The notes below the pieces were generated by a model. That model saw only the letters and a program-made list of their open reading frames with translations. It was not told the DNA's origin and did not search any database. This document shows positions 1,565 to 52,235 of a DNA stretch of 64,000 nucleotides, piece by piece. The stretch is from IMG/VR virus record IMGVR_UViG_3300043409_001561; one strand, 5' to 3'. The stretch comes from a virus. Each line of letters begins with the position of its first letter. Position 1 is the stretch's first letter. The position numbers and the translations under genes were made by a program.

Positions 1565-1615
1565 AAGTAAGTATAAAAAATTTATTTAATAAAATCAACA
1601 TATATTTTTTTTATA

Positions 1616-2753: not shown

Positions 2754-2778
2754 CTAAGTAAAAAGTATTAGATAAAGG

Positions 2779-2806
2779 CAAAAAAAATGGGGGACTAAAC
2801 CCCCAT
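2779..2806 (-). terminator. rho-independent terminator (GGGGGTTTAGTCCCCC followed by a T-run on the minus strand)
   Basis: Perfect 7-bp GC stem with a T8 run; lies downstream of the minus gene 2826..3620. Confidence 0.55.
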
Positions 2807-2825
2807 TCATACCGAACCTATTGAT

Positions 2826-3620
2826 TTACAACAAACTCTCAGAAAGACTCCACAACATTTTGTTTACATCTAAATTTTGTTCGATTGATCTAATTGAGCG
2901 ACTTCTAGATCTTCTAACTTTACCGTTGTCTCTTGGTGTAACGATTAATGTACCACCCTGTAACATATTTTCTTGTACTCTATTGAAAACACTCCACAAA
3001 TCGTTACCAGAATCTTCATCTCTTCTGATGTGTAACATCTGATTCAAATCAATTAATTTATCTGAACCCCATCTTTCATCTGCAACCATTTTGGCGAAAT
3101 CATATTGTTGAGTCATCGATAAATCTTTGGACATCATATCCTGAACTCTACCAACAACCAATGGAATTTTCTCTGTTGTCATATTAATAACTTTAAGAAT
3201 ATCCTCTTTTTGAAACCCTTTGTGCATCACTCTGAACTCATCAAAAGTTTTATCTGCGATAACCAAACCATTAGAACAAACTAATCTGAATAGTCCCACA
3301 TGAAACTTAAATGAAGATGAACCATCGTGTGAATTGGTTAATAAAATTTCTGGATGGGTATCACCAATCTCTCTAGATAAATTAATGTTGTTTTCATTAC
3401 GAAAACGTAACATATGTTTTTTAAATGGGCTTTTAGCTTCGTACCCCTTTCTAGTTGATGATTGCATCGCCTTTGTAGGTAACCAACCTTGCTCACTTAA
3501 AATTTCGATCACTTCCGTAGTTGGGATGAATCGATAAACATTCGACAAATGGTTTGATGGGGCTTGTGTAAGAGCCGATGGACAAACTGAACCAATTTGA
3601 TTTAAATTTAAATATTCCAT
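2826..3620 (-). CDS. DUF932-like phage/plasmid protein (TIGR03299-like)
   Basis: The LLTNSHDGSSSF motif and overall length are typical of the DUF932 family (recalled from memory; no search was run). Confidence 0.5.
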   Translation of the reverse strand: MEYLNLNQIGSVCPSALTQAPSNHLSNVYRFIPTTEVIEILSEQGWLPTKAMQSSTRKGYEAKSPFKKHMLRFRNENNINLSREIGDTHPEILLTNSHDGSSSFKFHVGLFRLVCSNGLVIADKTFDEFRVMHKGFQKEDILKVINMTTEKIPLVVGRVQDMMSKDLSMTQQYDFAKMVADERWGSDKLIDLNQMLHIRRDEDSGNDLWSVFNRVQENMLQGGTLIVTPRDNGKVRRSRSRSIRSIEQNLDVNKMLWSLSESLL

Positions 3621-3661
3621 AGTTTTTATTTTTTATTTGTTATAAAGTTAAGTATAATTTA

Positions 3662-4048
3662 TTAAACTGCCAAAATTTCTTTTAATTTATTTACACGATT
3701 AGTGTAAGTTTTTTGATAAAACTTATCAAACGACTCTTTAATATAGACAAAACTAACAGGTCCACCCATATATTTATACGCAGTCCCCCAATTCATTCCG
3801 TCATCTACCATATCAATCACACCTATAGAAACAGAATTTATACTAGTGTTACCAATAATAACATTGATACCAGTTTCAGGTGAATACAAACCTCTTTTAC
3901 AATCTTCACCTTTAGGACTTTCTACAAACCCTCTTTTTCGAAATTCTGACATTACATAATCGAACATATCTGTACCCATTTCCTTTTTAAGGGAATTAAG
4001 TTCACTTTTCAGTTCTTTGATTTTAGTTACTTTCTCTAATACTTTCAT
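3662..4048 (-). CDS. hypothetical protein
   Basis: ORF track. Confidence 0.4.
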   Translation of the reverse strand: MKVLEKVTKIKELKSELNSLKKEMGTDMFDYVMSEFRKRGFVESPKGEDCKRGLYSPETGINVIIGNTSINSVSIGVIDMVDDGMNWGTAYKYMGGPVSFVYIKESFDKFYQKTYTNRVNKLKEILAV

Positions 4049-4129
4049 AGTTATTATTTTTTAGTTATTGTAAATTTAAGTCTTTTTTTTCAAACTACCA
4101 AACATTTTAATCTTTTTTTTCAATATTTA

Positions 4130-5965
4130 TTGTATATTATTATTTATATGAGAAAATTAAACAGAGCAGAAATAAGATTTCTTAAATATTTAGATGAACA
4201 TTTAGACGATGTGTTTGATAAAACGTCAGCACTTAAAGTGTTAAGAGATGATTTAGGTTTAGATTCTAAAGAGGCGACACACTTATATAGTGTTTGGTAC
4301 TTCACCAAAGGAGATACAGATTATAGTGAGGTAGAATACGATGATGATAATAGTTTGGTATCCTTTATAAGGAAAATGAGTTCATTTAATAGTAATTCTG
4401 ATAGAGAATCGTATATGGATATGATATATGAAGATGAACGTGAGAAATTAGAGAGAATTTATGGTGAATGGATTAATATTCGTTGTGGTGAATGGAGAAG
4501 TACTGTACCATGTATTGTATGGCATAGTGATCATATCACATTAGAATTAGATTATGATGATTGGAAAGAACATTTTTCGGGATTACATGAACAAAGTTTC
4601 TATATCTATGATAAAGCGTATAGTGATTACGGTAGTGATTCTGACGAAATGAGTGAAGATGAGTTTGACTACGCATATAGTAATGATGAAACTATAGAAC
4701 TTTTTGGAGAATTAGCGTTAATCGTAGGTAAAAATACTTGGCCAGGTAAAGATAATGGGGGGATAACGGAAAAAGATATATCTAATTTTTTAGAAAGTAC
4801 TTTACCATCAGATGTATATGAATCGATAGTTAGTGATTATTTAACTGAACTAGGATATGTAGTTACAAATGCTAGAAATAAATCAACAAGAGAAACTTAC
4901 TCGAATGAAATAAAATATGACGTTAACAAATCCAGTTGTAGTACAAGTAATAATTGTATCGAAATACCATATGATGATTTAATCGAAATAATTAATGAAA
5001 ATGGTTTAGTAAATTTATCTGAATTAATGGACGCTGAAATACAACCAGACGTTGATTTAGAAAATGGTTATTACGATTCTTGGGTAGATGATGATGGTGT
5101 TGATGAAGTAATAACAGAATTTAACAGAACATTAAGAAGATCTATAGATTCAATTATAGAAGATGGTGGAATAGATATTAATGAATTAATAGAAAAAAGA
5201 GAGGGTTTTTATAAAATTATTAAAGATTTAGGTTTTGTTTTAGTATCACCAACAACAAATAAGGGTGATTGGTATAAAAGTAAGGATGATAAAATACATT
5301 TTTATATGAACGATGTAGATTTTGGGGAAGATAAGATTAAATTTACATATGAAGGTAAATCACATTTAGTTCCGATAGAAGATTTAAGTGATTGGTCACA
5401 AGGTAGTGTATTAGATTTAAATGAAAGTGTTAAATACAATAAGATTAAGTTACTGAAAGAGAATAAAGATGTAATAAATAAAATATCGATATTCGATTTT
5501 GATGGTACACTTATGGAGACACCTCATCCAGAGAAGGGTAAGTTATTTTGGGAAGAAACTACAGGTATGAAATATCCTCATATTGGGTGGTGGAGTAAAC
5601 CTGAATCTTTAGATACTAAAGTATTTAACATTAGGACTATAACCCCAACTGTTAAAGCGTATAAGAAAGAAATGGGGGATCCTAATACATTAGTCATTAT
5701 GTTAACAGGTAGGTTACCACAACAACACGATCAAGTGGAAGGTTTATTGTCCTCAAACGGTATTTACTTTGACGAGTACCATTATAAAGGTAACGGTGAT
5801 ACTTTAGGTAGTAAATTAAATACTATTAGAACATTATTAAGTAAATACCCAACAGTTGAGTCCATTGAGATGTGGGAGGATAGAGAACCTCACGCAATTG
5901 AGTTTGAGAAATGGGGTGAAGAAAATGGTGTAACTATAAAAGTTAATTTAGTTTTAAAGAAGTAA
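4130..5965 (+). CDS. large acidic protein with a C-terminal HAD-superfamily phosphatase domain (polynucleotide 3'-phosphatase-like)
   Basis: C-terminal FDFDGTL (DxDGT, HAD motif I) followed by a region of HAD-like length. The N-terminal roughly 430 aa is D/E-rich. Confidence 0.5.
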   Translation: MYIIIYMRKLNRAEIRFLKYLDEHLDDVFDKTSALKVLRDDLGLDSKEATHLYSVWYFTKGDTDYSEVEYDDDNSLVSFIRKMSSFNSNSDRESYMDMIYEDEREKLERIYGEWINIRCGEWRSTVPCIVWHSDHITLELDYDDWKEHFSGLHEQSFYIYDKAYSDYGSDSDEMSEDEFDYAYSNDETIELFGELALIVGKNTWPGKDNGGITEKDISNFLESTLPSDVYESIVSDYLTELGYVVTNARNKSTRETYSNEIKYDVNKSSCSTSNNCIEIPYDDLIEIINENGLVNLSELMDAEIQPDVDLENGYYDSWVDDDGVDEVITEFNRTLRRSIDSIIEDGGIDINELIEKREGFYKIIKDLGFVLVSPTTNKGDWYKSKDDKIHFYMNDVDFGEDKIKFTYEGKSHLVPIEDLSDWSQGSVLDLNESVKYNKIKLLKENKDVINKISIFDFDGTLMETPHPEKGKLFWEETTGMKYPHIGWWSKPESLDTKVFNIRTITPTVKAYKKEMGDPNTLVIMLTGRLPQQHDQVEGLLSSNGIYFDEYHYKGNGDTLGSKLNTIRTLLSKYPTVESIEMWEDREPHAIEFEKWGEENGVTIKVNLVLKK

Positions 5966-5968: not shown

Positions 5969-6289
5969 TTATTTATCCTTTTTAGGTGAAGGTAAATATT
6001 TTAAATCTGTATAACTCATATAGATATATTCTGTTACCATATCTACATTACTGTAATATATATTCCATTTATCATACCCGAAATAGTCAGGTATAAATTC
6101 CTCATCGTCCACATATTCTAAAAAGTCTTGACCATCAGTTACATAGTGTTCATAACACCAGTTATAGTAATCACTGTCAACTAACTCCCTATAATAATCA
6201 TCACCATCTCCCTCTACTTTAAAAACTAATGTAAGAATATTATCCAAATCACAGATAATATCATAAACCTCTTGTATTGTGTAATTCAT
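5969..6289 (-). CDS. hypothetical acidic protein
   Basis: ORF track. Confidence 0.4.
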   Translation of the reverse strand: MNYTIQEVYDIICDLDNILTLVFKVEGDGDDYYRELVDSDYYNWCYEHYVTDGQDFLEYVDDEEFIPDYFGYDKWNIYYSNVDMVTEYIYMSYTDLKYLPSPKKDK

Positions 6290-6312
6290 AATATATTTTG
6301 AAAATAAATATA

Positions 6313-6660
6313 TTAAAATATAACAATACGTAATTTTAGTTTAAATTTTTTACATAAATCTATCATATGTTTTGTACCCTTACTCTTCCCATCCCAAAAA
6401 ATAATTGCACCATCAGCCACTTTAGCCATCTCTTCATTTCTCATATATCCCGCCCTTTTACCGTATAAATCCCACATTGCGGGGTATTCTTCTAATTTAT
6501 GATGGTTCTGGTGGGCATAATCTTCACCTAATGAATCTGCACCTTTAGCTTTTCCAGATATGATAGAAATTTCTTTCTGATTTTTTAAAAAGTAATCTAG
6601 TTTTTGTTTTAATAGTTCGTAGTCATTAAATGTCCTACTACCTGCAACTATGACTTTCAT
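6313..6660 (-). CDS. SLOG-fold / DUF2493-like nucleotide-binding protein
   Basis: MKVIVAGSR...GADSLGE...FWDGKSKGT pattern, typical of the YspA/DUF2493 phage-associated SLOG family (memory-based). Confidence 0.4.
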   Translation of the reverse strand: MKVIVAGSRTFNDYELLKQKLDYFLKNQKEISIISGKAKGADSLGEDYAHQNHHKLEEYPAMWDLYGKRAGYMRNEEMAKVADGAIIFWDGKSKGTKHMIDLCKKFKLKLRIVIF

Positions 6661-28506: not shown

Positions 28507-28750
28507 TTGTTTTATTTTATCAAAGATATAAATAATATTTCAATCTGCCAAATTTTTTGGTTATTTATATTGGTTATAAATAAGGTGATAGTGATGGAGT
28601 ACCCGTCTCGCTCCAATCTTAAGTGCTTAATCGTAGTTTTACGAGGCCTCGGCACTGTCCTTTTCAGGGGGTGATGAATTCCTGATCCACTCTGGATTGT
28701 CGACATCCGTTGAGTGGGGAAAACCACTATCAGTATTTTAATTGTTTATG

Positions 28751-28824
28751 TGGTCCTTGTTGGAATCGAACCAACCACCTACGGTTTATGAGACCGCCGC
28801 TCTAACCGAATGAGCTAAAGGACC
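28751..28824 (-). tRNA. tRNA-Met/Ile2 (anticodon CAT)
   Basis: Manual fold: acceptor GGTCCTT/AAGGACC, D-arm GCTC..GAGC, anticodon loop CTCATAA, T-loop TTCGATT. Confidence 0.7.
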
Positions 28825-39716: not shown

Positions 39717-40196
39717 TCAAATCTTTCTAAGTATTAAACAACCATCTGAATCAAGTTTTGGTTTACCTGTAGTTATACACTCACCTTTTCTGTTTACACC
39801 ATCACAAGTAGGATCTAAACATTCTTCAACTATCTCAACATCCCATTCAGTTTGTTGTAGTGATGTAATATATTCACCCAATGTTTCCTTATGATCTTGA
39901 AACTTTAATGCCTTGTTCCAACAATTCATCATATCTTCTAAAGTGAATAATTTATTTTTATTCAATTCGATTGATTTTTGGAAACCTTCTTTGTAAGCTC
40001 TCATTTGACCAACAAAATTAATTTTTTCATATAAATCATATCCCATTGCCAATTCATCCAAATCATAACCACGTTCAATTGATTCACAGTTTTTAACAGA
40101 TAACCTAGCATAAGGTGCGTTCTCATCTGTCGCATACATAATGTTGTCTACTAATAGCATCCAACCATTATCTAATTTATTTAGTTTTCCTTTCAT
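39717..40196 (-). CDS. hypothetical protein
   Basis: ORF track. Confidence 0.4.
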   Translation of the reverse strand: MKGKLNKLDNGWMLLVDNIMYATDENAPYARLSVKNCESIERGYDLDELAMGYDLYEKINFVGQMRAYKEGFQKSIELNKNKLFTLEDMMNCWNKALKFQDHKETLGEYITSLQQTEWDVEIVEECLDPTCDGVNRKGECITTGKPKLDSDGCLILRKI

Positions 40197-40718: not shown

Positions 40719-41519
40719 TTAAATTGGTAATTTTACTTTACTTAACATTTGATTTGAAACATGAGTATATATTTCAGTAGTTTTAACATTACTGTGACCC
40801 GCAATTTTTTGGATTAAACGAAGATCCGTTCCTGATTCTAAAAGATTTGTAAAACAAGAATGTCTTAATTGGTGGATGTGATATTGTTCACCTAAATATT
40901 TTTTAACAATCTTATTACAACTATTTGAACTATATTGTAAAGAATTTTGTCCGTTAAACAAATATTCTTTTGGTTTATACTGGATGAAATAATTTCTTAA
41001 TAACTCTAAAACAGTTTGAGAAAGTGGGACAATTCTATCCTTTCTACCTTTGGCGTTTTTAATATGTATTAACATCCTTTTTGAATCAATATCACCTATT
41101 TTAAGGTTAACTACTTCTGAAACTCTTAACCCAACCGAATATGTTATTGTAAGTATTGTTTTATGTTTTATATTTTCAATTTTTGATAATTGTTCTTTTA
41201 TAAATTCCCCATCAATAACAACTGGTAATTTCTTTTCGGATTTTGGTCTTTTAAAACTCACTTTATCGTATTTCTTGTTTAAACCAAATTTATATAAAAA
41301 CCTAATGGCGTTTATGACTTGGTTTTGTTGTGATACCGATGTGAAGTTATATTTATCCAAATAAGATTGGAAATCGTTAGAATTACAATGCACTATTTGT
41401 TTACCACCTAAACTATACAAGAAAGGTTTTATATGAGATAGATAGTTATCTTTAGTTCTAGGTGAATAGTTTAGGTATATAAACTTTTCTTCACAAATCT
41501 TTATAATTTTATTATTCAA
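40719..41519 (-). CDS. tyrosine site-specific recombinase/integrase (XerC/D-like)
   Basis: GLRVSEVVNLKIGDID, HQLRHSCFT and GHSNVKTTEIYTHV give the R..HxxR..Y catalytic signature. Confidence 0.75.
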   Translation of the reverse strand: MNNKIIKICEEKFIYLNYSPRTKDNYLSHIKPFLYSLGGKQIVHCNSNDFQSYLDKYNFTSVSQQNQVINAIRFLYKFGLNKKYDKVSFKRPKSEKKLPVVIDGEFIKEQLSKIENIKHKTILTITYSVGLRVSEVVNLKIGDIDSKRMLIHIKNAKGRKDRIVPLSQTVLELLRNYFIQYKPKEYLFNGQNSLQYSSNSCNKIVKKYLGEQYHIHQLRHSCFTNLLESGTDLRLIQKIAGHSNVKTTEIYTHVSNQMLSKVKLPI

Positions 41520-41576
41520 AGTATTGGTTTTATTGGGTTAAACTTGTGGGTATGTATATATAATAGTTATAAACAA

Positions 41577-41816
41577 TTACTTGTTCTCCGATTTAAATTT
41601 TGCTAATATTTTTAAACGATTTACTTGTGTCATTTTAATACGCCCAAATTCTTCCATCATATAACCACCCTTATCATCCATTCCATTTTCTGCTTCTTTT
41701 TTCAATCGTGTCCAAAATTCGTGTATTAAATCTACTAATTCATCTTTATCAAATTTACGTAAATCGTTTAAAAATTCCAAACTTTGTTCATCTAATTTAA
41801 TTTCATCTGTTTTCAT
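41577..41816 (-). CDS. hypothetical protein
   Basis: ORF track. Confidence 0.35.
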   Translation of the reverse strand: MKTDEIKLDEQSLEFLNDLRKFDKDELVDLIHEFWTRLKKEAENGMDDKGGYMMEEFGRIKMTQVNRLKILAKFKSENK

Positions 41817-41949
41817 AATTCGTAACTGTTTATAACAAGGTATATATGAAATACCTTATAAAGTTTGTACTAATTTTCAAGTTTTGCGGTAAGGTACTTC
41901 ATATATACCCATCCGTTAGTAGCAAATTTAAAAACCTGCCACCGCACAG

Positions 41950-42216
41950 CTACCCGTTCCATTTAGCCATTTCGTCTATCAATCCACATTCAGTTAGTCG
42001 CTCCATTTTCATATGCCCAACATCAGCAACGCCAGTTGTTCTTTTCATAGCGGTTACTCTAAATTTTTTGGCGTTACTTTTTCTGTTCACTTTGCCCTGT
42101 AATAAATATGCGTTGCTTCCAAAACTGAATGTGCATATATCAGCCCATCTACTCCAGCTAAATGGAGTTAACCAAAAGTGCATCCACCATATTCTAAATT
42201 CTGTTTTCTGTTTCAT
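41950..42216 (-). CDS. hypothetical protein (in the GC-richer island)
   Basis: ORF track. Local composition differs from the flanks. Confidence 0.35.
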   Translation of the reverse strand: MKQKTEFRIWWMHFWLTPFSWSRWADICTFSFGSNAYLLQGKVNRKSNAKKFRVTAMKRTTGVADVGHMKMERLTECGLIDEMAKWNG

Positions 42217-42331
42217 TTTATTTTTGTATTTAGTTATTAAATCCTACGCTCAAAAAGGTTTTTAAATCAGCTACTAACATGGGCTATAACGCCAGCTTGT
42301 GAAAAACAAACCGAGCGTATAGCCCCGTCCG

Positions 42332-42556
42332 TTATACACAATATTCGACACACATTTCAATCAACTCATTTTGTTCATCTAAATTATCAGTATAATCACT
42401 TTCGTTTATGATTAATTTTGTTGGGTTTTCATTAACAATTATACGATAATTGACACCACCCTTAATGTTTGGTATAATTTTTTCTTCTTGATGTGTTACG
42501 ACTTCATTAAGTCTTTTACTTAATTTTTCACAAAATAATTCAATTCTCTTTTCCAT
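42332..42556 (-). CDS. hypothetical protein (island)
   Basis: ORF track. Confidence 0.35.
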   Translation of the reverse strand: MEKRIELFCEKLSKRLNEVVTHQEEKIIPNIKGGVNYRIIVNENPTKLIINESDYTDNLDEQNELIEMCVEYCV

Positions 42557-42783
42557 AATTTTTATTTTTTTATAAATATACTAATTTATTTTTATAATGT
42601 AAAGCCATCACACAAAATACTGTGTATAACAAGGTGTATAAGAAAGTTTGCTATCAACAGTTGTGTTTAATTTGAAAGTTCATCTAAGCAAACCTTCTCA
42701 TACACCCAACCGTTATAGCACATTAAAACGATGCTATAACATGGGCTAAAAGAAATAACCCATGCCACCGCACCGCTTCGATT

Positions 42784-43020
42784 TTAATTAACGTTTACAG
42801 ATTGTAATTTGTCTTTTTCTGCATTTATTTCACGTAATGTGTCCCAAACTTTCCAACTCATAGCAGTTAATTTTTCACACAATCCTTCATGTCCATATTT
42901 TTCAATATGTTTTTTCAATTCTGCGTCATCGAATCCTCCATCAACATCGCCAATTTGTTCCTGTCCTGTTTCAGTATCTGTTACAATGTAGATACCTCCA
43001 ATTTGTTTACTTTCTGCCAT
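42784..43020 (-). CDS. hypothetical protein (island)
   Basis: ORF track. Confidence 0.35.
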   Translation of the reverse strand: MAESKQIGGIYIVTDTETGQEQIGDVDGGFDDAELKKHIEKYGHEGLCEKLTAMSWKVWDTLREINAEKDKLQSVNVN

Positions 43021-43107
43021 TTTGCTTTTTGTTTTAAAATAGTGGTCGTATTCTAAACCCCTCCCACATAGGGTTACTATCTTTTAGCCCAGTATCGTTA
43101 TGTGCTA

Positions 43108-43398
43108 TTATACCAAAGTGGGTAGTTCGCACCAATGAGTTACTTCTTCAATCTTAGTTCCCTTTTCTGTAAGCCAAAAAAATTGACCTTTATCTCTATA
43201 ATCTAAACCATCTTCAAGGTCATTCATTTCGCATACATGCCATCTTCTAATACTGTATTGCTTTTTATCAATACCACTCACTAATACATACTTCCCATAT
43301 TCAGGTAAGTCAGCATAGGTTTCAATTTTTTTCGGCTGAGAAATAACAGCACATAACATCGGTTTGGCAAAATTGCCGTTCTGTTCCTTGTTTGACAT
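43108..43398 (-). CDS. hypothetical protein (island)
   Basis: ORF track. Confidence 0.35.
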   Translation of the reverse strand: MSNKEQNGNFAKPMLCAVISQPKKIETYADLPEYGKYVLVSGIDKKQYSIRRWHVCEMNDLEDGLDYRDKGQFFWLTEKGTKIEEVTHWCELPTLV

Positions 43399-43488
43399 TT
43401 TATCTAAATTTAAACATTTGTAATTCTATTGAAGTTTTGTGTTCGGCAACTTCGCCAAGCCGAGAACCGTTAGGTGTAATAAATTTTA

Positions 43489-43674
43489 CTACAACCGTTC
43501 AGCAACCTTAGTTCCTAATTTATTATACTCTTTACCTTCATCCTCTGCCATCAATCGAATAGCATCTTGAATTTGTTTAGGTAAATCATCACCAAACTTT
43601 CCAAGTAATTGGTATAATAAATTTTGCTTTGATAAAGCGTTTTCTCTTTTAATTAACAATTCTATTTCTTTCAT
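43489..43674 (-). CDS. hypothetical protein (island)
   Basis: ORF track. Confidence 0.3.
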   Translation of the reverse strand: MKEIELLIKRENALSKQNLLYQLLGKFGDDLPKQIQDAIRLMAEDEGKEYNKLGTKVAERL

Positions 43675-43841
43675 AATCCGTAAAATTTACATACACCTAA
43701 CAAAGTATAACCAAAAGTGGGGTGTAGTTCCATCATTTAGCTATTGTGCTTCTAATTTACTTTTGTAGGTAAGTTAGGGTTCAGCACTTTTAATCCCCAC
43801 CTTCGGTTATACTCAACCGTTAGTTTCAATCGTTAGGTAAT

Positions 43842-44057
43842 TTAATTAAAGTGATTTACGTATTCATACGCAGATATAGCTAAAATTTTTTGAAAGTTTT
43901 CTTTTTTTGCAACATAAGGTCTGAAATAACCAATGTTAATCCAAATATCATCATTATCAAATGATAGTTCACTCTCCCAATAGCAAAAGCCTTTAATTAA
44001 CCAATAGTTTTTCGTTTTCATAATATTTATTTTTTTCTGTATTAAATCACCTAACAA
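43842..44057 (-). CDS. hypothetical protein (island)
   Basis: ORF track. Confidence 0.3.
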   Translation of the reverse strand: MLGDLIQKKINIMKTKNYWLIKGFCYWESELSFDNDDIWINIGYFRPYVAKKENFQKILAISAYEYVNHFN

Positions 44058-44109
44058 CTAAACCTAACAACAAATAAACAACATTAAAACGATTGTTTAT
44101 CATCAGACG

Positions 44110-44304
44110 TTATAAAACATTATAGTTGTTTTTTATTTTACTCCATAATTTTCCAAAAGCATTATCCATATTTCTATCATTAAAATCAATTGCACCTTGA
44201 ATATACGCATCATTTACAATTTTCTCTAGTTCATAGTATGTAAATGAATATTTTTTTGATTCTTGCTTTACTATTTCTTTCTTTCTAAATAATTTTCCTA
44301 TCAT
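44110..44304 (-). CDS. hypothetical protein (island)
   Basis: ORF track. Confidence 0.3.
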   Translation of the reverse strand: MIGKLFRKKEIVKQESKKYSFTYYELEKIVNDAYIQGAIDFNDRNMDNAFGKLWSKIKNNYNVL

Positions 44305-44370
44305 AATAAACGTTTTATAACATCAAATATAGATATTAATTTCTATATAAACAAATTTTTTTAAAAATAG

Positions 44371-44445
44371 TACCAAAGGTGAGATTCGAACTCACAAACC
44401 TTTGTTTCTAAGACAAAGAGGTATACCGATTCCCGTCACTTTGGC
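44371..44445 (-). tRNA. tRNA (anticodon TAG; Leu-like but with a short variable arm)
   Basis: Acceptor GCCAAAG/CTTTGGT, anticodon stem TTTGT/ACAAA with loop CTTAGAA, T-loop TTCGAAT. The D-arm is irregular. Confidence 0.5.
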
Positions 44446-44451
44446 ATTTTG

Positions 44452-44524
44452 AGCAGGTAGAGAGAATCGAACTCTCGTCCTCTGATTGGAAGTCAGACAT
44501 AATAAGCCACTATACGATACCTGC
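44452..44524 (-). tRNA. tRNA-Gly (anticodon TCC)
   Basis: Acceptor GCAGGTA/TACCTGC, anticodon stem TCTGA/TCAGA with loop CTTCCAA, T-loop TTCGATT. Confidence 0.65.
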
Positions 44525-44695
44525 ATTAAGATTATTTTCTCTTAATCTTTTTTTTTAATTTAATAAATTTTATTAATCTTATTAAATTAATAGAATTTTT
44601 TCTAGACTCGATAATATTAAAATTATCTTTCGATGATATACCAGAACCCGTCATTACCTCTCTCATACTTATTTATTTTACTTTTTATTATTTGT

Positions 44696-44768
44696 GGATA
44701 CATCTCGGCATCGAACCGAGGACTCCTGAGTGCAAATCAGGTGTGATAGCCAGCTTCACCAATGACCC
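44696..44768 (-). tRNA. tRNA-Ala-like (anticodon TGC)
   Basis: D-arm GTGA/TCAC, anticodon stem CCTGA/TCAGG with loop TTTGCAC, T-loop TTCGATG. The acceptor has two mismatches and lacks G3-U70. Confidence 0.5.
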
Positions 44769-44774
44769 AAATGG

Positions 44775-44849
44775 TTGCGGGACTGGGACTCGAACCCAGA
44801 ACTTCGGCTTATGAGACCGACGAGATAACCAATTTCTACATATCCCGCA
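44775..44849 (-). tRNA. tRNA-Met (anticodon CAT), initiator-like; CCA appears genomically encoded
   Basis: Anticodon arm TCGGT-CTCATAA-GCCGA resembles tRNA-fMet. The 3' end reads TCCCGCA-A-CCA. Confidence 0.65.
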
Positions 44850-44881
44850 ATTTTTAATTATACCGAATTCGGTATAATTAG

Positions 44882-44956
44882 TGATCCCGGTGAGGTTCGA
44901 ACTCACGACCCCTCCATTAAAAGTGGAGTGCTCTAAACCAACTGAGCTACGAGATC
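44882..44956 (-). tRNA. tRNA-Lys (anticodon TTT)
   Basis: Clean cloverleaf: D-arm GCTC-AGTTGGTTA-GAGC, anticodon loop CTTTTAA. Confidence 0.8.
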
Positions 44957-45017
44957 TTCTGTTTGTCATACTTGTCACTTTCCATAATCTGACATTTTAT
45001 TTATTTGTTAATAATTG

Positions 45018-45090
45018 AGGTTCTGCCCAGGTTCGAACTGGAGACACTTGATTACAAATCAAGAGTTTTACCGACTAAACTACAAAACCT
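45018..45090 (-). tRNA. tRNA-Thr (anticodon TGT)
   Basis: Anticodon stem CTTGA/TCAAG with loop TTTGTAA, T-loop TTCGAAC. Confidence 0.75.
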
Positions 45091-45095
45091 AATTG

Positions 45096-45169
45096 TATCG
45101 TGTACGGGATTCGAACCCGTGATTTTCACCTTGAAAGGGTGACGACTTAAACCACTCGTCTAACACGAC
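45096..45169 (-). tRNA. tRNA-Glu (anticodon TTC), second copy
   Basis: Anticodon stem TCACC/GGTGA with loop CTTTCAA, T-loop TTCGAAT. Confidence 0.7.
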
Positions 45170-45177
45170 ATTTATTG

Positions 45178-45250
45178 TAGTCTCTGTAGGGTTCGAACCT
45201 ACGACAACTTGCATGTAAAACAAGTGCTCTACCAACTGAGCTAAGAGACT
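45178..45250 (-). tRNA. tRNA-Val (anticodon TAC)
   Basis: Acceptor AGTCTCT/AGAGACT, D-arm GCTC-AGTTGGTA-GAGC, anticodon loop TTTACAT. Confidence 0.8.
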
Positions 45251-45255
45251 GTGGC

Positions 45256-45327
45256 GGTCCATGACGGTTACGATCCGTCTACTCTACCGTGACAGGGTAG
45301 GATGATAAGCCATTTCACCAATAGACC
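45256..45327 (-). tRNA. tRNA-Asp (anticodon GTC), second copy with an unusual T-loop ATCGTAA
   Basis: Acceptor GGTCTAT/ATGGACC, anticodon stem CTACC/GGTAG with loop CTGTCAC. Confidence 0.7.
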
Positions 45328-45334
45328 ATTTAAA

Positions 45335-45440
45335 TGATAATCAGGATTGAGTTGTATACGTGCTCTACCAACTGAGCTACCGTCGCCCCGAAGGACAACG
45401 GACAGGATTCGAACCTGCGACACCGAGCTTAAAAGGCTAA
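45335..45440 (-). other. rearranged tRNA-derived element (T-arm-like segment placed 5' of an acceptor/D-arm half)
   Basis: The minus strand reads ...GCAGGTTCGAATCCTGTCC...GGCGACGGTAGCTCAGTTGGTAGAGC... followed by no T-arm. The order is permuted relative to a normal tRNA. Confidence 0.3.
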
Positions 45441-45480
45441 TGTAATTGTTGCTGAAACAATCCTTTTATTATCATTATAG

Positions 45481-45564
45481 AGGAGAGATGAGGTGTCGAT
45501 CCCCATACCTTTCAGTACCAACTGTTTTCAAGACAGTGTTGCGGGCCGCCGCAATTATCTCTCC
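45481..45564 (-). tRNA. tRNA-Ser (anticodon TGA), type II with an atypical D-arm
   Basis: Acceptor GGAGAGA/TCTCTCC, anticodon stem ACTGT/ACAGT with loop CTTGAAA, long variable region, T-loop ATCGACA. Confidence 0.55.
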
Positions 45565-45602
45565 GTTTAATTTCCAATACGTCAAAGAACTAAAAACAAA
45601 AA

Positions 45603-45632
45603 ACCCTAAGTTCTCACTTAGGGTTTCCATTA
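45603..45632 (-). terminator. rho-independent terminator-like hairpin (CCCTAAGTGAGAACTTAGGG followed by T6 on the minus strand)
   Basis: Perfect 7-bp stem plus T-run between the two tRNA sub-clusters. Confidence 0.45.
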
Positions 45633-45855
45633 TATAGTATTTAAATTTTTAAATGTTATCTATTACAATATACCCTAAGATCTGGTTGTAGCGAATCCGC
45701 TCCATCCATTTTCGTCTTAACGACCTCTAATCTGTATGTCATTGTATTTTTCATTGAAATTTTTACCTTTTTAATTAAATATACATAAAGTTACGAAAGT
45801 TTCTTCAAAAAGTCAAATAATTTTTAATTTTTTTTTATAATTTATTTTATTTAAG

Positions 45856-45929
45856 AGGTCAGAGAGGGATTCGAACCCCCGAATAATGGATTTGCAGTCC
45901 ACCCCTTTAAACCACTCAGGCATCTGACC
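45856..45929 (-). tRNA. tRNA-Cys (anticodon GCA)
   Basis: Acceptor GGTCAGA/TCTGACC, anticodon stem GTGGA/TCCAT with loop CTGCAAA, T-loop TTCGAAT. Confidence 0.7.
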
Positions 45930-45998
45930 ATCAGTTCACTAAACTAGATTTTGCACAATAAACTTTATCTGTTTATTGTAGCAAAAATAAGTTTATTG

Positions 45999-46071
45999 TA
46001 CACTCTGAGAGATTCGAACTCCCATCTTATAGTCCGTAGCCATATGTTCTAATCCGTTGAACTAAGAGTGT
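45999..46071 (-). tRNA. tRNA-Arg (anticodon ACG)
   Basis: Acceptor ACACTCT/AGAGTGT, D-arm GTTC/GAAC, anticodon loop CTACGGA. Confidence 0.75.
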
Positions 46072-46076
46072 ATTGG

Positions 46077-46148
46077 TAGGGATGGGTGGAGTCGAACCAC
46101 CGAGACAACTGTATAAGAGTTGCATGTTCACCGTTACATCACATCCCC
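46077..46148 (-). tRNA. tRNA-Ile (anticodon TAT), followed by an encoded CCA
   Basis: Acceptor GGGGATG/CATCCCT, D-arm ATGT/ACAT, anticodon stem CAACT/AGTTG with loop CTTATAC. Confidence 0.65.
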
Positions 46149-46155
46149 ATTTTTG

Positions 46156-46243
46156 CGGAAAGAATAGGATTCGAACCTATGGTACCCTTACGAGTACAAC
46201 ACCTTAGCAGGGTGCCTCAATAAACCAACTCTGACATCTTTCC
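46156..46243 (-). tRNA. tRNA-Ser (anticodon GCT), type II
   Basis: Acceptor GGAAAGA/TCTTTCC, anticodon stem GCACC/GGTGT with loop CTGCTAA, long variable arm, T-loop TTCGAAT. Confidence 0.7.
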
Positions 46244-46247
46244 ATTA

Positions 46248-46321
46248 GGTGTATGACGGGAATTGAACCCGTGACCTTTTGATTCACAATCAAACACTCT
46301 AACCAACTGAGCTACATACAC
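46248..46321 (-). tRNA. tRNA-His (anticodon GTG)
   Basis: Acceptor GTGTATG/CATACAC, anticodon stem TTTGA/TCAAA with loop TTGTGAA, T-loop TTCAATT. Confidence 0.8.
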
Positions 46322-46323
46322 AG

Positions 46324-46394
46324 TTGTCTCCCAAGGATTCGAACCTCGATTCAGTGGTCCAAAACCACTTGTCCTGCCTTTAGACGAGGAGACA
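46324..46394 (-). tRNA. tRNA-Gln (anticodon TTG)
   Basis: U1-A72 acceptor TGTCTCC/GGAGACA, anticodon stem AGTGG/CCACT with loop TTTTGGA. Confidence 0.8.
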
Positions 46395-46457
46395 ATTTAA
46401 AATTATTCACTACCCAAATATCGAATTTTTTACTACTTTTGGGAAGTTAATAATTAG

Positions 46458-46532
46458 TCTGGGTAGCGAGACTCGAACTCACATTATGTCCACATCCCAA
46501 ATGTGGCGGCTTACCAATTAGCCAATACCCAG
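46458..46532 (-). tRNA. tRNA-Pro (anticodon TGG)
   Basis: C1-G72 acceptor CTGGGTA/TACCCAG, anticodon stem CCACA/TGTGG with loop TTTGGGA. Confidence 0.8.
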
Positions 46533-46535
46533 TTA

Positions 46536-46653
46536 AAAGTGTGGTGAGATTTGAACTCACACGAAAGGTTACATATCTAATCCCCTTCTTTTCTCTACAA
46601 ACTAGTATAAGTAGTTTCAGAACATTAAATCATCACCTAACCCTTTCACACTT
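46536..46653 (-). other. tRNA-like element with an insertion of about 45 nt closed by an AAAGGGTTA/TAACCTTT stem
   Basis: Acceptor AAGTGTG/CACACTT and T-arm GTGAG-TTCAAAT-CTCAC. The central region is replaced by a long structured insert that shares its closing-stem sequence with 30934..31059. Confidence 0.4.
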
Positions 46654-46654
46654 G

Positions 46655-46727
46655 TGGACAGAGAGGGAATCGAACCCCCGACACCTAGATCTTCAATCTA
46701 GTGCTCTACCAACTGAGCTACCTGTCC
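46655..46727 (-). tRNA. tRNA-Phe (anticodon GAA)
   Basis: Acceptor GGACAGG/TCTGTCC, anticodon stem CTAGA/TCTAG with loop TTGAAGA, T-loop TTCGATT. Confidence 0.8.
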
Positions 46728-46795
46728 TTCTTCGGGGAGGACTTGGCTGAGGTATCCTAACGGTTCTACCCTCAACACTCGCCTCCCGTCTTATG

Positions 46796-46866
46796 CACAC
46801 CTGAAAGGATTCGAACCTCTAACAACGGTTTTGGAAACCGTCATGATACCATTTCACTACAGATGT
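46796..46866 (-). tRNA. tRNA-Trp (anticodon CCA)
   Basis: Acceptor ACATCTG/CAGGTGT (one G-U pair), anticodon stem ACGGT/ACCGT with loop TTCCAAA. Confidence 0.75.
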
Positions 46867-46942
46867 ATTAAAATGTTCAGGAAGACTTTTTTACATCCAA
46901 ATTGTATTTTTTTATTTGCTGAAATCTTCCTTTTAACATTTG

Positions 46943-47023
46943 TGGGACCTGGTGGACTCGAACCACTCCCTTTAGGACGAAATTTACAGTTTCGCTGCCG
47001 TATCCAAACGACTTTCAGTTCCC
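46943..47023 (-). tRNA. tRNA-Tyr (anticodon GTA), long variable region
   Basis: Anticodon stem CGAAA/TTTCG with loop CTGTAAA, T-loop TTCGAGT. The acceptor has one mismatch. Confidence 0.6.
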
Positions 47024-47091
47024 ATTTAAACTAACACCATGACTCCTTTCGAACTTTAGAGGCTCGTATCATTCAACTCTGTGTTAGTTTG

Positions 47092-47164
47092 CGACTCAGG
47101 CAGGACTCGAACCTGCGACCGATTGATTAACAGTCAATTGCTCTACCAACTGAGCTACTGAGTC
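47092..47164 (-). tRNA. tRNA-Asn (anticodon GTT)
   Basis: Acceptor GACTCAG/CTGAGTC, D-arm GCTC/GAGC, anticodon stem ATTGA/TCAAT with loop CTGTTAA. Confidence 0.8.
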
Positions 47165-47203
47165 ATTTACTTTCATAACAATATGTCAAAGAACTTTTGT
47201 TCT

Positions 47204-47280
47204 GTCGGTATGGTAGGGATCGAACCTACGAATCTTCTCGATATCAGCGAGATGCCTTAAACCAACTTGGCCACATACCG
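47204..47280 (-). tRNA. tRNA-Ile (anticodon GAT)
   Basis: Acceptor CGGTATG/CATACCG, anticodon stem TCTCG/CGAGA with loop CTGATAT, T-loop TTCGATC. Confidence 0.75.
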
Positions 47281-51723: not shown

Positions 51724-51847
51724 ATTATTACTATAAAAAATAAAACCCCCCTAATTATCTTAAGGGGGTTTTTAAAGGGCCGATAGGATCACTATCAACT
51801 TCCACCACTTTGTTTTTAAGGTACAAAGAACCTAGCGTGGAGATGGA

Positions 51848-52235
51848 GGGAGTCGAACCCTCGTCCAATCAAATTGCCATTAAAAATTCATTCACAAGCT
51901 TAGTTCATTTTTCTTAATGAACAAAATATTTGGTTTTATTTATAACATGGTTACCAACAACCCTGTTTCGATAATTGTTTAGAGAGTTTTACCGTCAACT
52001 CTATTTTTTACACCTTTCTGTTTCTAGGTAAGTGTGACCCACCGATTAAACTAATTCCATTAATTCAATCTCTTCAACCACCGCTGAGCGAGTGATAGAA
52101 GTTGGGATACTCATCATATCCTCTGTGTTGTATGCGTTTGCATTTATATTTTGATAGGTGTTTAAGGGTTTCCATCTAACCCTGCTTGCATCATTTCAAA
52201 CTCAACCTTTGACTGTCAAATCCAAAACCATCCCC
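51848..52235 (-). ncRNA. ssrA: candidate tmRNA (ssrA)
   Basis: The minus strand begins GGGGATGGTTTTGGATTTGACAG (compare E. coli GGGGCTGATTCTGGATTCGACGG). It ends GGACGAGGGTTCGACTCCCTCCATCTCCA, a tRNA-like T-arm plus acceptor whose 3' CATCTCC pairs with the 5' GGAGATG. The tag reading frame is not confidently identified. Confidence 0.55.

Follow-up and report, generated by a model that had tools for sequence, protein, structure and literature searches.

Integrons, phage stem-loop repeats and the present locus

In integrons, a tyrosine recombinase gene adjoins a terminal attI-type site, beyond which small and mostly unknown open reading frames (ORFs) form an array with one orientation; the same arrangement is found within the 64,000-nucleotide stretch of viral DNA analysed here (hereinafter designated the window). 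In both systems each unit carries an imperfect-palindrome site with ...AAC/GTT... ends, variable covarying arms and unpaired bases near its base (46–190 nt across the phage family), cassette boundaries fall at the AAC/GTT core, and the recombinase sense is on the best-folding strand, with the core at the hairpin's 5′ base. As in sedentary chromosomal integrons with their uniform attC sites (e.g. VCRs), sites are near-identical within a lineage and accompany unrelated, hypervariable cargo; this cargo also relates to the phage-host arms race. When compared with the attC criterion (R''(RYYYAAC)/R'(GTTRRRY), 57–141 nt), the MTAAC...GTTAK ends, 3–4-nt bulge, covarying arms and 46–190-nt length of the phage hairpins fit in outline, and R' box positions 5–6 often deviate from RRRY. 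The integron definition (IntegronFinder/Mazel) also includes an attI site and cassette mobility, both of which are found here, with insertion presumably taking place at the site.

The differences from integrons are equally specific. The host here is a virus, and its ORFs point toward the recombinase, with the hairpin 5′ of the ORF, whereas integron ORFs are promoterless, face away from intI and are expressed from Pc, and attC lies 3′ of the ORF; a Pc-type promoter at the recombinase therefore cannot drive them. In long hairpin classes an ORF can start within the loop. On the favoured strand it is the 5′ arm that carries the unpaired bulge, and the hairpins have a conserved mid-stem G.T pair and, in a short class, an invariant loop.

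Members of this hairpin family have been reported from phages before. HattCI predicted the short hairpin P12002L_attC1 (TGCTAACGGCTACGGCTAAACGGTCGTTTTAATGCCGTTTTAGCCATTGTTAGGC) as an attC site, and it gave no recombinants with IntI1/attI1 (Qi et al. 2023, PMC9892861). It belongs to the same short class as the window hairpin at 44112-44065 and is the only hairpin of its class tried experimentally; its failure with IntI1 counts against an integron-like reading. The phage CALINs and attC sites of that study share this hairpin class and methyltransferase cargo with the present locus. They were read as integrase-less attC clusters with possible traffic from bacterial integrons, whereas the phage recombinase, the attI-like site, the array dynamics and the wide family are not described there (PMC9892861).

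T4-type PeSLs (PMC2839356, PMC4122927) are likewise stem-loop repeats between small ORFan genes in plastic regions, with G-T pairs in their stems, motif-bounded indels and replacements, and the idea of a mobile unit of ORF plus motif. However, PeSLs combine a sigma-70 promoter with a terminator stem-loop, occur over many hyperplastic regions and recombine by homology without a dedicated recombinase, whereas the arrays here have an attI-like end next to a recombinase and break at a 4-nt core. A sigma-70-type promoter is not the conserved core of these hairpins: a search for sigma-70-type promoters gave 24 sites, compared with 22.7 expected after shuffling, and what the copies conserve is the base of the hairpin with its flanking positions rather than promoter hexamers. 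No U-tract terminator-like site was found on the gene strand at the hairpins, and the suggestion from a sequence-only reading of the window that they serve as individual promoters or terminators is thus not borne out.

An Xer enzyme without an I2 helix, XerC, uses the folded single-stranded attP(+) hairpin of CTXphi with the duplex site dif (PMC7790495). This precedent and the HattCI prediction count in favour of an integron-like reading. The recombinase here is Xer-like, with best matches to XerA and XerC/D; CTXphi, by contrast, employs a host enzyme to integrate an entire ssDNA phage once at dif, without arrays or cassettes.

Layout of the locus and its hairpin family

Eight co-directional minus-strand ORFs of 61–96 aa (41577-44304) sit between a 21-tRNA array (44370-47280) and the tyrosine recombinase gene. 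With every gene on the minus strand, the small ORFs are transcriptionally upstream of the recombinase. A cassette comprises one hairpin element and, after it, one small ORF or a few; all cassettes have a single orientation and share the recombinase strand. Between the array and the recombinase gene lies a conserved attI-like site that ends in the core TAAC. The features, all on the minus strand, are:

40719..41519, minus: Xer-like tyrosine recombinase ORF, 266 aa, TTG start, Pfam Phage_integrase 4.8e-37
41520..41576, minus: attI-like junction, terminal core TAAC (41569-41566) with ATTGTTTA before and TATTATATATAC after it
41577..41816, minus: cassette ORF, 79 aa, without a family match
41833..41918, minus: hairpin element, 86-nt class, with TAACGG, bulge ATG, 21-bp stem and TTGTTA
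42216-41950, minus: ORF, 88 aa, after the hairpin 42275..42334
42275..42334, minus: hairpin element, 60 nt, covariance model match of 30.1 bits, E 4.7e-5
42556-42332, minus: ORF, 74 aa, after the hairpin 42627..42715 and its tail
42627..42715, minus: hairpin element, 86-nt class, 21-bp stem including 3 G.T pairs
42712..42783, minus: remnant structures upstream of the preceding hairpin, with a CATGGG...CCCATG hairpin ending in GTTA
43020-42784, minus: ORF, 78 aa, preceded by the degenerate element 43021..43107
43021..43107, minus: degenerate or uncertain element, TAACGATAC core at 43100-43097
43398-43108, minus: ORF, 96 aa, weak DUF551 match
43354..43472, minus: hairpin element, 119 nt, 15-bp stem 43458-43364
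43674-43489, minus: ORF, 61 aa, forming a cassette with the hairpin 43698..43822
43698..43822, minus: hairpin element, 125 nt, 20-bp stem
44057-43842, minus: ORF, 71 aa, preceded by the hairpin 44065..44112
44065..44112, minus: short-class hairpin, 46-nt type, invariant loop TCGTTTTAATG, 61.2 bits, E 3.5e-13
44110..44304, minus: distal ORF, 64 aa, flanked by the tRNA array and the first hairpin

The hairpin 41833..41918 and the ORF 41816-41577 form the recombinase-proximal cassette, and the block TTTAACCCAATAAAACCAATA (41542-41522) of the adjoining junction is also kept in Polaribacter phage Freya. ORFs and hairpins interlock: the TAA stops of ORFs 42556-42332 and 44304-44110 are part of the TAAC cores of hairpins 42275..42334 and 44065..44112, respectively, and ORF 43398-43108 starts in the loop of hairpin 43354..43472, whose 3′ arm is coding. 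After the hairpin 42627..42715 comes a conserved tail that contains a sigma-70-like site (42603-42575), the only 10/12 match among the elements. The remnant region upstream contains the motif GTGCGGTGG and a partial short-class hairpin with the loop TCGTTTTAATG (42740-42712; 30.6 bits, model positions 16–44 only), and for the core at 43100-43097 in element 43021..43107 no matching 3′ arm or GTTA was found. The distal ORF 44110..44304 is probably a fixed flank rather than a cassette, since no hairpin lies upstream of it.

The sequence-only reading was right about the recombinase beside eight co-directional small ORFs and about the unusually long spacers (52–227 nt as measured), and erred in placing the ORFs downstream of the recombinase. 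The inverted repeats it listed exist (ACGCTC 42246/GAGCGT 42313; GGGCTATA 42281/TATAGCCC 42318; TATAGCA 42714/TGCTATA 42732; CATGGG 42740/CCCATG 42759). Its recurring AACCGTTA(T/G) motif is present on the plus strand at 42708, 43465 and 43815 but not at 43493, which reads AACCGTTC; variants are ATCCGTTA (41911) and GTCCGTTA (42327). The claim of a GC-richer island fails, with GC at 0.313 in pooled spacers, 0.302 in ORFs and 0.297 in the window (s.d. of 100-nt windows, 0.07). Only single hairpins are GC-rich, e.g. 42334-42275 at ~0.5, and with GC near the window value the compositional argument for horizontal acquisition is without support.

Neither of the two outcomes that the sequence-only reading had named as refuting it was obtained: the spacers do have a consensus and structure in common, and relatives differ in their ORFs. 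On the gene-sense strand (minus in the window) the family reads ATTR-N4-TAACG, a 3–4-nt bulge, a covarying 12–22-bp stem, a loop and TGTTA, and 368 distinct copies in related phage contigs give the logo ATTRCnnMTAACGKTT...TGTTAKnnnnAGT. In the short class (46 distinct copies), compensatory changes occur at 11/12 upper-stem pairs with 93.8% of cells paired, the covariation score is 0.571 compared with 0.161 for shuffled and <=0.164 for slid alignments, and the hairpin base contains a G.T pair in 44/46 copies. Selected on Watson-Crick pairing alone, 378 elements have 594 G.T but 96 A.C pairs (p about 1e-88), a sign of strand-specific folding, and their G.T pairs concentrate at stem positions 12–13; this bias fits RNA structure equally, because the folded strand is the transcribed sense strand in phage arrays. 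The hairpins exceed what chance would give. The longest stems of the window are three uninterrupted ones of 20–21 bp (43814-43703, 42707-42632 and 41910-41838), and DNA-fold z-scores of the hairpins range from –3.3 to –5.8. Within the window the short-class covariance model matches only this region (61, 31 and 30 bits; next best, 15.8). Rfam at gathering thresholds returned tRNAs and tmRNA only, and in 41400-44400 with E up to 10 only chance-level miRNA-like hairpin matches.

The recombinase contains the motifs that normally bear the catalytic residues (GLRVSE, KGRKDR, HQLRHS, GHS and EIYTH, read from the sequence), and its homolog in contig L008 has ATG at the position of the TTG start. Its closest solved relative is XerA 4a8e (121 bits, aligned in one stretch). 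With VchIntIA 2a3v, by contrast, the alignment breaks into two stretches, between which 37 query residues (177–213) face 85 residues of IntI4 (180–264), and the IntI-specific I2 α-helix between conserved patches is absent from the phage protein in this alignment. The I2 insertion is the means by which IntI reads attC hairpins, and its absence counts against an integron-like reading. The protein falls short as an integron integrase (TIGR02249 of NCBIfam, 153.6 bits against a cutoff of 265; NF011946, 96.5 against 435). It likewise falls short as a Xer/dif dimer-resolution protein (XerA 178.4 against 220, XerD 146.5 against 329.6, XerC 145.7 against 335). Such resolution acts at a single 28-bp dif site; the sites of the locus are many, are hairpin-associated and bound cassettes.

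Cassette turnover and linkage to the recombinase

Relatives gain, lose and exchange whole cassettes with breakpoints at the TAAC/YAAC core. ORF content is almost wholly different between them, nearly all array ORFs being singletons, which agrees with the variability proposed in the sequence-only reading. An attI-like junction terminates every array, and at 30 loci homology begins abruptly at it, ATTGnnnMTAAC followed by TATWATATAT, 55–70 nt before the recombinase start. Three contigs (L013, L014 and L017) share an 850-nt segment at 100% identity, which starts at TAAC and extends into the recombinase, whereas directly upstream of it identity is 28–35%, and L002 and L003 show 99.5% identity on the recombinase side of TAAC versus 38% upstream; partners at the junction have only about 12 nt in common. 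Cassettes are also shared singly: L020 and L037 have 495 nt in common at 99% identity in otherwise unrelated arrays, and the window cassette of hairpin 43698..43822 and ORF 43674-43489 recurs in L016 at 80% identity, with homology running from TAAC (43822) to TAACGGTT of the next element (43465). One cassette-level homology block, that of L021 and L034, begins at the 3′ core, not the 5′ core, which counts against an integron-like reading. So do the 78/82 near-identical hairpin pairs in different contigs whose flanks are unrelated on both sides, a pattern also expected from homologous recombination between hairpins.

Ten cultured isolates of Polaribacter phage Freya display five array configurations. 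Freya_1, 2, 5, 6, 8 and 10 have flanks of 99.2–100% identity around arrays of 0 to 12 ORFs and up to 4.9 kb, an ATTGnnnnYAAC core immediately precedes all breakpoints, and the last core adjoins the conserved attI-like stretch ahead of the integrase, which the isolators took for a lysogeny gene, suggesting a temperate lifestyle (PMC8776804).

The arrays are tied to one side of the recombinase. Within ±8 kb of the gene in 40 non-duplicate relatives (recombinases of 60–85% amino acid identity), 155 elements occur in 193 kb upstream and 11 in 277 kb downstream, i.e. 0.80 versus 0.04 per kb. By strand, 182 hairpin matches are on that of the recombinase compared with 11 on the opposite one. Of 28 loci whose upstream sequence extends for at least 1.5 kb, 26 have an array, and the recombinase is truncated in one of the other two. 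All reported short-class matches in eight recombinase-bearing contigs (1.1 Mb) lie within the recombinase-side array, elements in the window are confined to the recombinase-adjacent region, and more distant recombinases (32–46% identity) occupy the same position. Counting against an integron-like reading, arrays or single hairpins occur without a recombinase in the available sequence of L069 and L081, phage P12002S has two hairpin clusters and no recombinase, and solitary hairpin copies exist in Bacteroidota chromosomes. The solitary copies run antisense to flanking genes, so the favoured strand there is not the transcript. Among 120 element-anchored slices, which are short and not centred, only 12 include a recombinase.

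Alternative explanations and implications

We regard the region as probably an integron-like gene-capture platform with a non-IntI recombinase, in a large Bacteroidota (Flavobacteriia-type) phage. PeSL-like mobile regulatory cassettes are an unlikely alternative in which intergenic stem-loops terminate or attenuate transcription or stabilise mRNA, some of them with a promoter, general phage functions shuffle genes by homologous or microhomology-mediated recombination between the stem-loops, and the neighbouring recombinase serves another end such as lysogeny or dimer resolution. The unrelated flanks of near-identical hairpins (78/82 pairs), the arrays and single hairpins without a recombinase, the sigma-70-like site (42603-42575) in the conserved tail of the 86-nt class and the identity of folded and mRNA strands in phage arrays would all suit it, and PeSLs of T4-like phages behave so, even yielding mini-circles (PMC2839356). 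It fits poorly with conservation at hairpin base and flanks instead of promoter hexamers, with chance-level promoter-like sites and with the failure to find U-tract terminators. Moreover, three different arrays meet a 100% identical recombinase segment at the same base while sharing about 12 nt, and all five Freya configurations break at cores; had the crossover occurred in flanking homology, sequence of donor type would remain beside the junction. The 20-fold enrichment on one recombinase side across 40 lineages and the antisense orientation of solitary bacterial copies point the same way.

That antisense orientation also weighs against purely RNA-level elements, i.e. RNase III-type processing sites or protein-binding hairpins between ORFs of a polycistronic early transcript, with the variability being merely that of a fast-evolving accessory region. 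Stems of 20 bp or more are typical of RNase III substrates, as in T7 early mRNA, and this reading would also account for the strong sense-strand bias to G.U-compatible pairs, the long-class start codons in loops and the RNA folding of the 227-nt spacer containing hairpin 42715-42627 (MFE –80.6 on the minus, sense strand versus –46.9 on the plus strand). We nevertheless consider it improbable: it leaves unexplained the DNA breakpoints exactly at TAAC, the hairpin-less attI-like core copy beside the recombinase and the linkage to that gene, and the hairpins are without an Rfam family match. Very improbable, in our view, is an ordinary phage integrase with attP, the variable DNA stemming from imprecise excision at differing host sites as in specialised transduction. 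Integrases usually adjoin attP, the junction on the recombinase side is sharp and a temperate lifestyle was suggested by Freya's isolators (PMC8776804), but the variable DNA consists of repeated units with the same core and hairpins in one orientation, each insertion has a core at its far boundary too, phage DNA of the same composition flanks it on both sides within contigs as long as 362 kb, and the cargo is of phage counter-defence type, not host flank.

On the integron-like reading, the array end at the attI-like site would be the cassette entry point, and the adjacent recombinase would catalyse both capture (attI × hairpin) and excision (hairpin × hairpin), with the cut within or beside TAAC, at the hairpin's 5′ base. 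By analogy with attC bottom strands and IntI, and with the CTXphi hairpin and XerC, the active form of the hairpin would be one folded DNA strand, that of gene sense; the hairpin may additionally fold in mRNA. The core idea of the sequence-only reading, a cassette-like hypervariable island whose repeats are recombination sites for the adjacent recombinase, is thereby supported, with the role of the enzyme deduced from the arrangement.

The array cargo includes DNA methyltransferases (among them orphan ones), the Thoeris inhibitor Tad6, Lar, ADP-ribosyltransferases and an RNA ligase; the recognisable cargo is counter-defence. Since units of hairpin plus gene are gained and lost exactly at a 4-base core beside a recombinase, the locus looks like a phage version of an integron, one that appears to run on a recombinase other than the integron's and to stock anti-defence genes.

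Hairpin elements between the small ORFs of the window

All genes in window 40719-47280 lie on the minus strand and follow one another, along transcription, as a 21-tRNA array (47280-44370), eight small ORFs (44304-41577) and a tyrosine recombinase (41519-40719). The inverted repeats listed by the sequence-only reading are present in the spacers between these ORFs, and the spacers do share a repeat, since one hairpin family with a common consensus recurs across them. On the minus strand, each hairpin unit (element) consists of ATTR-N4-TAACG followed by a bulge of 3-4 nt, a stem of 12-22 bp, a loop, the 3' arm and TGTTA(T/G). We call the TAAC at the 5' base of the hairpin the core, an element with the small ORF(s) following it a cassette, and a row of cassettes an array.

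Features of the array and recombinase in the window
44304-41577, minus: eight small ORFs, 61-96 aa
44112-44065, minus: hairpin copy
43822-43698, minus: hairpin copy
43472-43354, minus: hairpin copy
near 43100, minus: degenerate element
42783-42712, minus: remnant structures
42715-42627, minus: hairpin copy
42334-42275, minus: hairpin copy
41918-41833, minus: hairpin copy
41519-40719, minus: tyrosine recombinase, 266 aa

The longest stems of the 64-kb window are three uninterrupted 20-21 bp stems of elements. The 227-nt spacer with hairpin 42715-42627 folds as RNA to -80.6 kcal/mol on the minus strand versus -46.9 kcal/mol on the plus strand, and folding of four hairpins with DNA parameters makes the minus strand stabler in three and equal in one. 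The TAA stop of the upstream ORF forms part of the TAAC core in two cases, and in the long size classes the start codon of the downstream ORF lies inside the loop and the 3' arm is coding. An unfiltered covariance model of the short class (hairpins of ~46 nt) matches the window only at 44116-44061 (61 bits), 42740-42712 and 42338-42271, the next best score being 15.8 bits; a possible extra element at 2232-2298 was discarded, its fold being unlike that of an element. Searched across the whole window with gathering thresholds, Rfam reports only tRNAs and the tmRNA; with E up to 10 over 41400-44400, it returns only chance miRNA-like matches and no family for the hairpins. Sigma-70-like sites do not exceed chance level, and no terminator-like sites were found on the gene strand at the hairpins. 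A separate motif, GTGCGGTGG(C/G)A, recurs immediately 3' of stop codons or of the 3' core in some elements (window 41945-41937 and 42771-42763, and the related loci L020 and L147); its resemblance to GGTGCG, with which the XerC arm of E. coli dif begins, may be chance.

Other features first read from the sequence fared less well. The motif AACCGTTA is present at three of the four positions where it had been placed and absent from the fourth. The GC values of the spacers (0.313), the ORFs (0.302) and the window (0.297) rule out the supposed GC-rich island and the horizontal transfer deduced from composition, and ARAGORN finds zero tRNAs between 41520 and 44369, which removes tRNAs or degenerate tRNAs as a source of GC-rich spacers. 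The profile searches proposed for the eight ORFs (Pfam, NCBIfam, PHROGs) returned nothing informative, only a weak DUF551 match for ORF 43398-43108, and blastn of the region against 50,697 phage records gave a single weak match of 113 nt.

The AT-rich window, with its 27 tRNAs and a tmRNA, looks like a piece of a large phage. Its two tRNA arrays (44370-47280, 21 genes; 28750-30467, 6 genes) are entirely on the minus strand, and the larger directly adjoins the cassette array across a 65-nt spacer (44305-44369, GC 0.11). A further Rfam tRNA match at 30934-31059 (minus; 126 nt, 39 bits) has no ARAGORN call and may be a tRNA with an insertion or intron. The phage-encoded tmRNA lies at 51835-52235 (minus; Rfam 112 bits), with the tag peptide ANAYNTEDMMSIPTSITRSAVVEEIELMELV according to ARAGORN. 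On the 3' side of the recombinase, 39717-40196 (minus) encodes a member of a conserved 159-187 aa family (MKGKL...LQQ(T/A)EWDV...), which is present in two copies (1840-2403 and 3275-3772) in the related contig L081, where the recombinase is absent.

Hairpin structure and occurrence across relatives

The recombinase query retrieved 46 IMG/VR loci with 60-85% amino acid identity, many on 100-362 kb contigs. In 704 kb scanned for AAC, a bulge, a stem of at least 12 bp and GTT, 182 elements lie on the recombinase strand versus 11 on the opposite strand, and they fall into size classes of about 46, 86, 115 and 123 nt. The logo of 368 distinct copies reads A-T-T-R-C-n-n-M-T-AAC-G-K-T-T on the 5' side and T-GTTA-K-n4-A-G-T on the 3' side. 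Among 46 distinct short-class copies the loop TCGTTTTAATG is invariant, compensatory changes affect 11 of 12 upper-stem pairs with 93.8% of cells paired, and the covariation score is 0.571 versus 0.161 for shuffled and at most 0.164 for slid alignments; base pair G9.T48 is a wobble in 44 of these copies. In 378 elements selected on Watson-Crick pairs alone, the remaining stem positions, which cluster at positions 12-13, comprise 594 G.T versus 96 A.C (p ~1e-88). These alignments indicate that the hairpin structure is under selection, and covariation together with the G.T excess implies that it forms from the gene-sense strand, as RNA or single-stranded DNA. A different geometry is seen in one element of locus L037 (~6190-6505), where a 12-bp stem (CGGATATATGAA / TTCATATATCCG) encloses a ~290-nt loop holding most of an ORF, so coding sequence can be bracketed by hairpin arms.

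Matches to the short-class pattern in 596 Gb of genomes are mostly due to chance; of 120 matches, 32 are genuine hairpins, and many of these sit on phage fragments that were binned wrongly. Short-class hairpins (TAACG...TCGTTTTAATG...TGTTA) also occur singly between chromosomal genes on four Bacteroidota chromosomes or large contigs (L242, L229, L252 and L250); in L242 and L250, which are unrelated genomes, the neighbour is a TetR-like gene. In all four, the G.T-favoured strand is antisense to both flanking genes, a placement that speaks for a DNA-level role; in the phage arrays, the G.T bias cannot separate RNA from single-stranded DNA. The same hairpins are found on CPR-binned contigs of GC 0.39-0.45 (L193, a Patescibacteria MAG; L216, an Uhrbacteria MAG; L257; L261), and L193 encodes a 32% identical recombinase 1.8 kb downstream of the hairpins on the same strand. 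The system may extend to CPR bacteria or their phages.

Recombinase linkage and cassette exchange at the core

The structured, strand-specific hairpins are arrayed to one side of a conserved Xer-like recombinase. Across 40 non-duplicate loci, the 193 kb lying upstream of this gene contain 155 elements (0.80/kb), against 11 in the 277 kb downstream of it (0.04/kb). Of the 28 loci in which at least 1.5 kb precedes the recombinase, 26 have an array, of up to 15 elements in 8 kb, and one of the two array-less loci has a truncated recombinase. On eight recombinase-bearing contigs (1.1 Mb in total) every reported short-class match falls within the array. As evidence pointing the other way, arrays or solitary hairpins lack a recombinase in the available sequence of L069, L081, phage P12002S and the Bacteroidota chromosomes; among IMG/VR slices found by the short-class pattern the gene is present in 12 of 120, a rate that is uninterpretable because the slices are short and uncentred.

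The recombinase has the conserved motifs in which the catalytic residues normally lie. Among solved structures, its closest relative is XerA of Pyrococcus abyssi (4a8e; 121 bits, a single stretch), and it scores under the NCBIfam cutoffs for XerA, IntI, XerC and XerD. VchIntIA aligns in two pieces only, with 37 aa of the query opposite 85 aa of IntI4, and the IntI-specific insertion is therefore absent. By these alignments the protein is an Xer/IntI-group enzyme, not IntI.

The array ends at an attI-like site. When the 170 nt 5' of the recombinase start are aligned for 30 loci, homology starts abruptly at ATTGnnnMTAAC/TATWATATAT (window 41576-41545, TAAC at 41569-41566), and the sequence upstream is unrelated among the loci. 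As read from this alignment, the junction is a hairpin-less copy of the 5' half of an element, placed like the attI of an integron. The motif (TATAAC/TATAATATATAC) also follows a short array at L069:2836, where no recombinase gene follows; it may be a remnant after recombinase loss.

Cassettes are gained, lost and exchanged with breakpoints at TAAC or YAAC. As the sequence-only reading had suspected, ORF content varies between relatives: array ORFs are nearly all singletons despite the conserved recombinase, and the few shared ORF families differ in position and mostly keep the class of the preceding hairpin. L016:3764-4121 matches window 43822-43465 at 80% identity, from TAAC to TAACGGTT of the next, different element; the otherwise unrelated arrays of L020 and L037 have a core-bounded 495 nt in common at 99% identity; and a block shared by L007 and L023 ends directly after TTATAACG. 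One homology block begins at the 3' core, a point against the integron-like reading. At the attI-like site, an 850-nt segment running from TAAC into the recombinase is 100% identical in L013, L014 and L017, and identity drops to 28-35% (random level) from the base before TAAC; for L002 and L003 the corresponding values are 99.5% and 38%.

Among cultured phages, the recombinase has its nearest relatives in Polaribacter phage Freya (38.6% identity) and Cellulophaga phage Ingeline (40%). Ahead of the recombinase start, Freya and the window have conserved the stretch TTTAACCCAATAAAAYCAATA. The ten Freya isolates, of one species and one host, range from 43,978 to 48,920 bp, and six were compared.

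Arrays in six Freya isolates
Freya_1: ...ATTGTTTACAAC/ACCCCTATAACAAC..., then the integrase; no cassette
Freya_2: two cassettes inserted at the Freya_1 junction
Freya_10: 12 ORFs, 4.9 kb
Freya_5: Freya_10 without record positions 903-4100
Freya_8: Freya_10 without record positions 1-902
Freya_6: a different cassette, 443 nt

Each breakpoint lies directly 3' of an ATTGnnnnYAAC core, and the shared parts are 99.2-100% identical. An HNH endonuclease gene directly follows the recombinase in Freya_10 (4969-5592), Freya_1 and Freya_6. Ingeline has no array, and its 8 isolates show no length variation. P12002S (NC_028763), the sister phage of P12002L, carries at least 10 elements in two clusters (29.6-32.3 kb and 38.0-41.9 kb) that flank four methyltransferase genes and small ORFs, with the replication module between them; its annotation contains no recombinase.

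Presumed cargo was sampled as the 100 longest distinct ORFs of the arrays, any ORF located between the recombinase and the first hairpin detected being counted as part of an array; about a quarter match a family and about three quarters are without a known one. The matches include DNA methyltransferases (two N6_N4, MT-A70, D12, Eco57I-like), the Thoeris inhibitor Tad6 (4.6e-41), Lar restriction alleviation, ADP-ribosyltransferases (ART-PolyVal, PARP-type), an RNA ligase, an Rv2179c-like exoribonuclease, and HD and metallophosphoesterase domains.

Alternative readings and comparison with integrons

Crossover within flanking homology is expected to leave donor-type sequence beside the junction. 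In L013, L014 and L017, three different arrays meet the identical segment at the same base, arguing for exchange at the core itself. We infer that the adjacent recombinase catalyzes this exchange and that the hairpin is used as folded single-stranded DNA, and an integron-like capture platform is the probable reading of the locus. Elements resembling the promoter-early stem-loops (PeSLs) of T4-type phages, shuffled by homologous recombination, are a rather unlikely alternative that draws on the near-identical hairpins: both flanks are unrelated in 78 of 82 such pairs, a pattern that fits the uniform attC sites of chromosomal integrons and also PeSL-type homologous exchange (PMC2839356). Whether a hairpin travels with its downstream ORF is only weakly tested by these pairs, with flank homology downstream in 4, upstream in 0 and neither in 78. 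A purely RNA role, with which the strand bias in the arrays is compatible and against which the antisense chromosomal copies speak, seems less likely still. That the site is an attP undergoing imprecise excision is very improbable; the isolating authors of Freya noted only that having an integrase suggests a possible temperate lifestyle (PMC8776804). REP/RAYT and IS200/IS605-type hairpin elements seem unlikely, there being no HUH transposase nearby and one hairpin per unit rather than two ends.

An integron-like platform has partial precedent. IntI has its closest relatives among the Xer proteins, and XerC can integrate the folded single-stranded DNA of CTXphi unaided (PMC7790495), which makes action of an Xer-type enzyme on a hairpin plausible. 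Qi et al. 2023 (PMC9892861) applied IntegronFinder and HattCI to 10,705 phage genomes and described 17 small clusters of attC sites without an integrase (CALINs). Of six sites assayed in that study, only P12002L_attC1 failed to recombine with IntI1; by our comparison it belongs exactly to the short hairpin class of the window. In our literature search, no paper connected such sites with array turnover, an attI-like site or an Xer-like recombinase encoded by a phage.

The defining feature of integrons is IntI with its I2 helix, and they are seen as an invention of bacteria. Along the folding strand, a canonical integron reads [AA/C, attC hairpin][ORF] ... attI, intI (sense). Given the general geometry of attC (MacDonald 2006; Bouvier 2009), the phage locus follows this layout. 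In contrast to integrons, the bulge of the phage elements is on the 5' arm and the phage ORFs are sense on the folding strand; they therefore point toward the recombinase, and dependence on a Pc promoter is not possible. Lacking the IntI insertion and having inverted ORF orientation, the platform is not an integron proper but works like one.

The evidence is evenly poised on a broader proposal, a second, IntI-independent kind of integron in viruses. Its recombinase, Xer-like but devoid of the I2 helix, would capture and excise cassettes at an attI-like site, acting on hairpins folded from the gene-sense DNA strand, and would thereby maintain a rapidly turning-over bank of counter-defence genes. 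Such platforms would have a wide distribution, from Polaribacter siphoviruses of 45 kb (Freya) to phages of >300 kb and possibly phages of CPR bacteria, and would have arisen by convergence with integrons or represent their pre-I2 ancestor type.

If so, capture of folded-hairpin cassettes needs no I2, which would bear directly on the origin of integron integrases, and the failure of IntI1 on a predicted phage attC would be explained. Among the hypervariable ORFan regions of phages, at least one class would be accounted for, and the integrase of cultured "possibly temperate" flavobacterial phages would gain a new reading. The Freya isolates are a culturable test system for the platform, and arrays flagged by the hairpin model offer a cheap route to new anti-defence genes. 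Bacterial integrons have recently been found to store anti-phage defence cassettes, of which the arrays described here would be the phage-side mirror.
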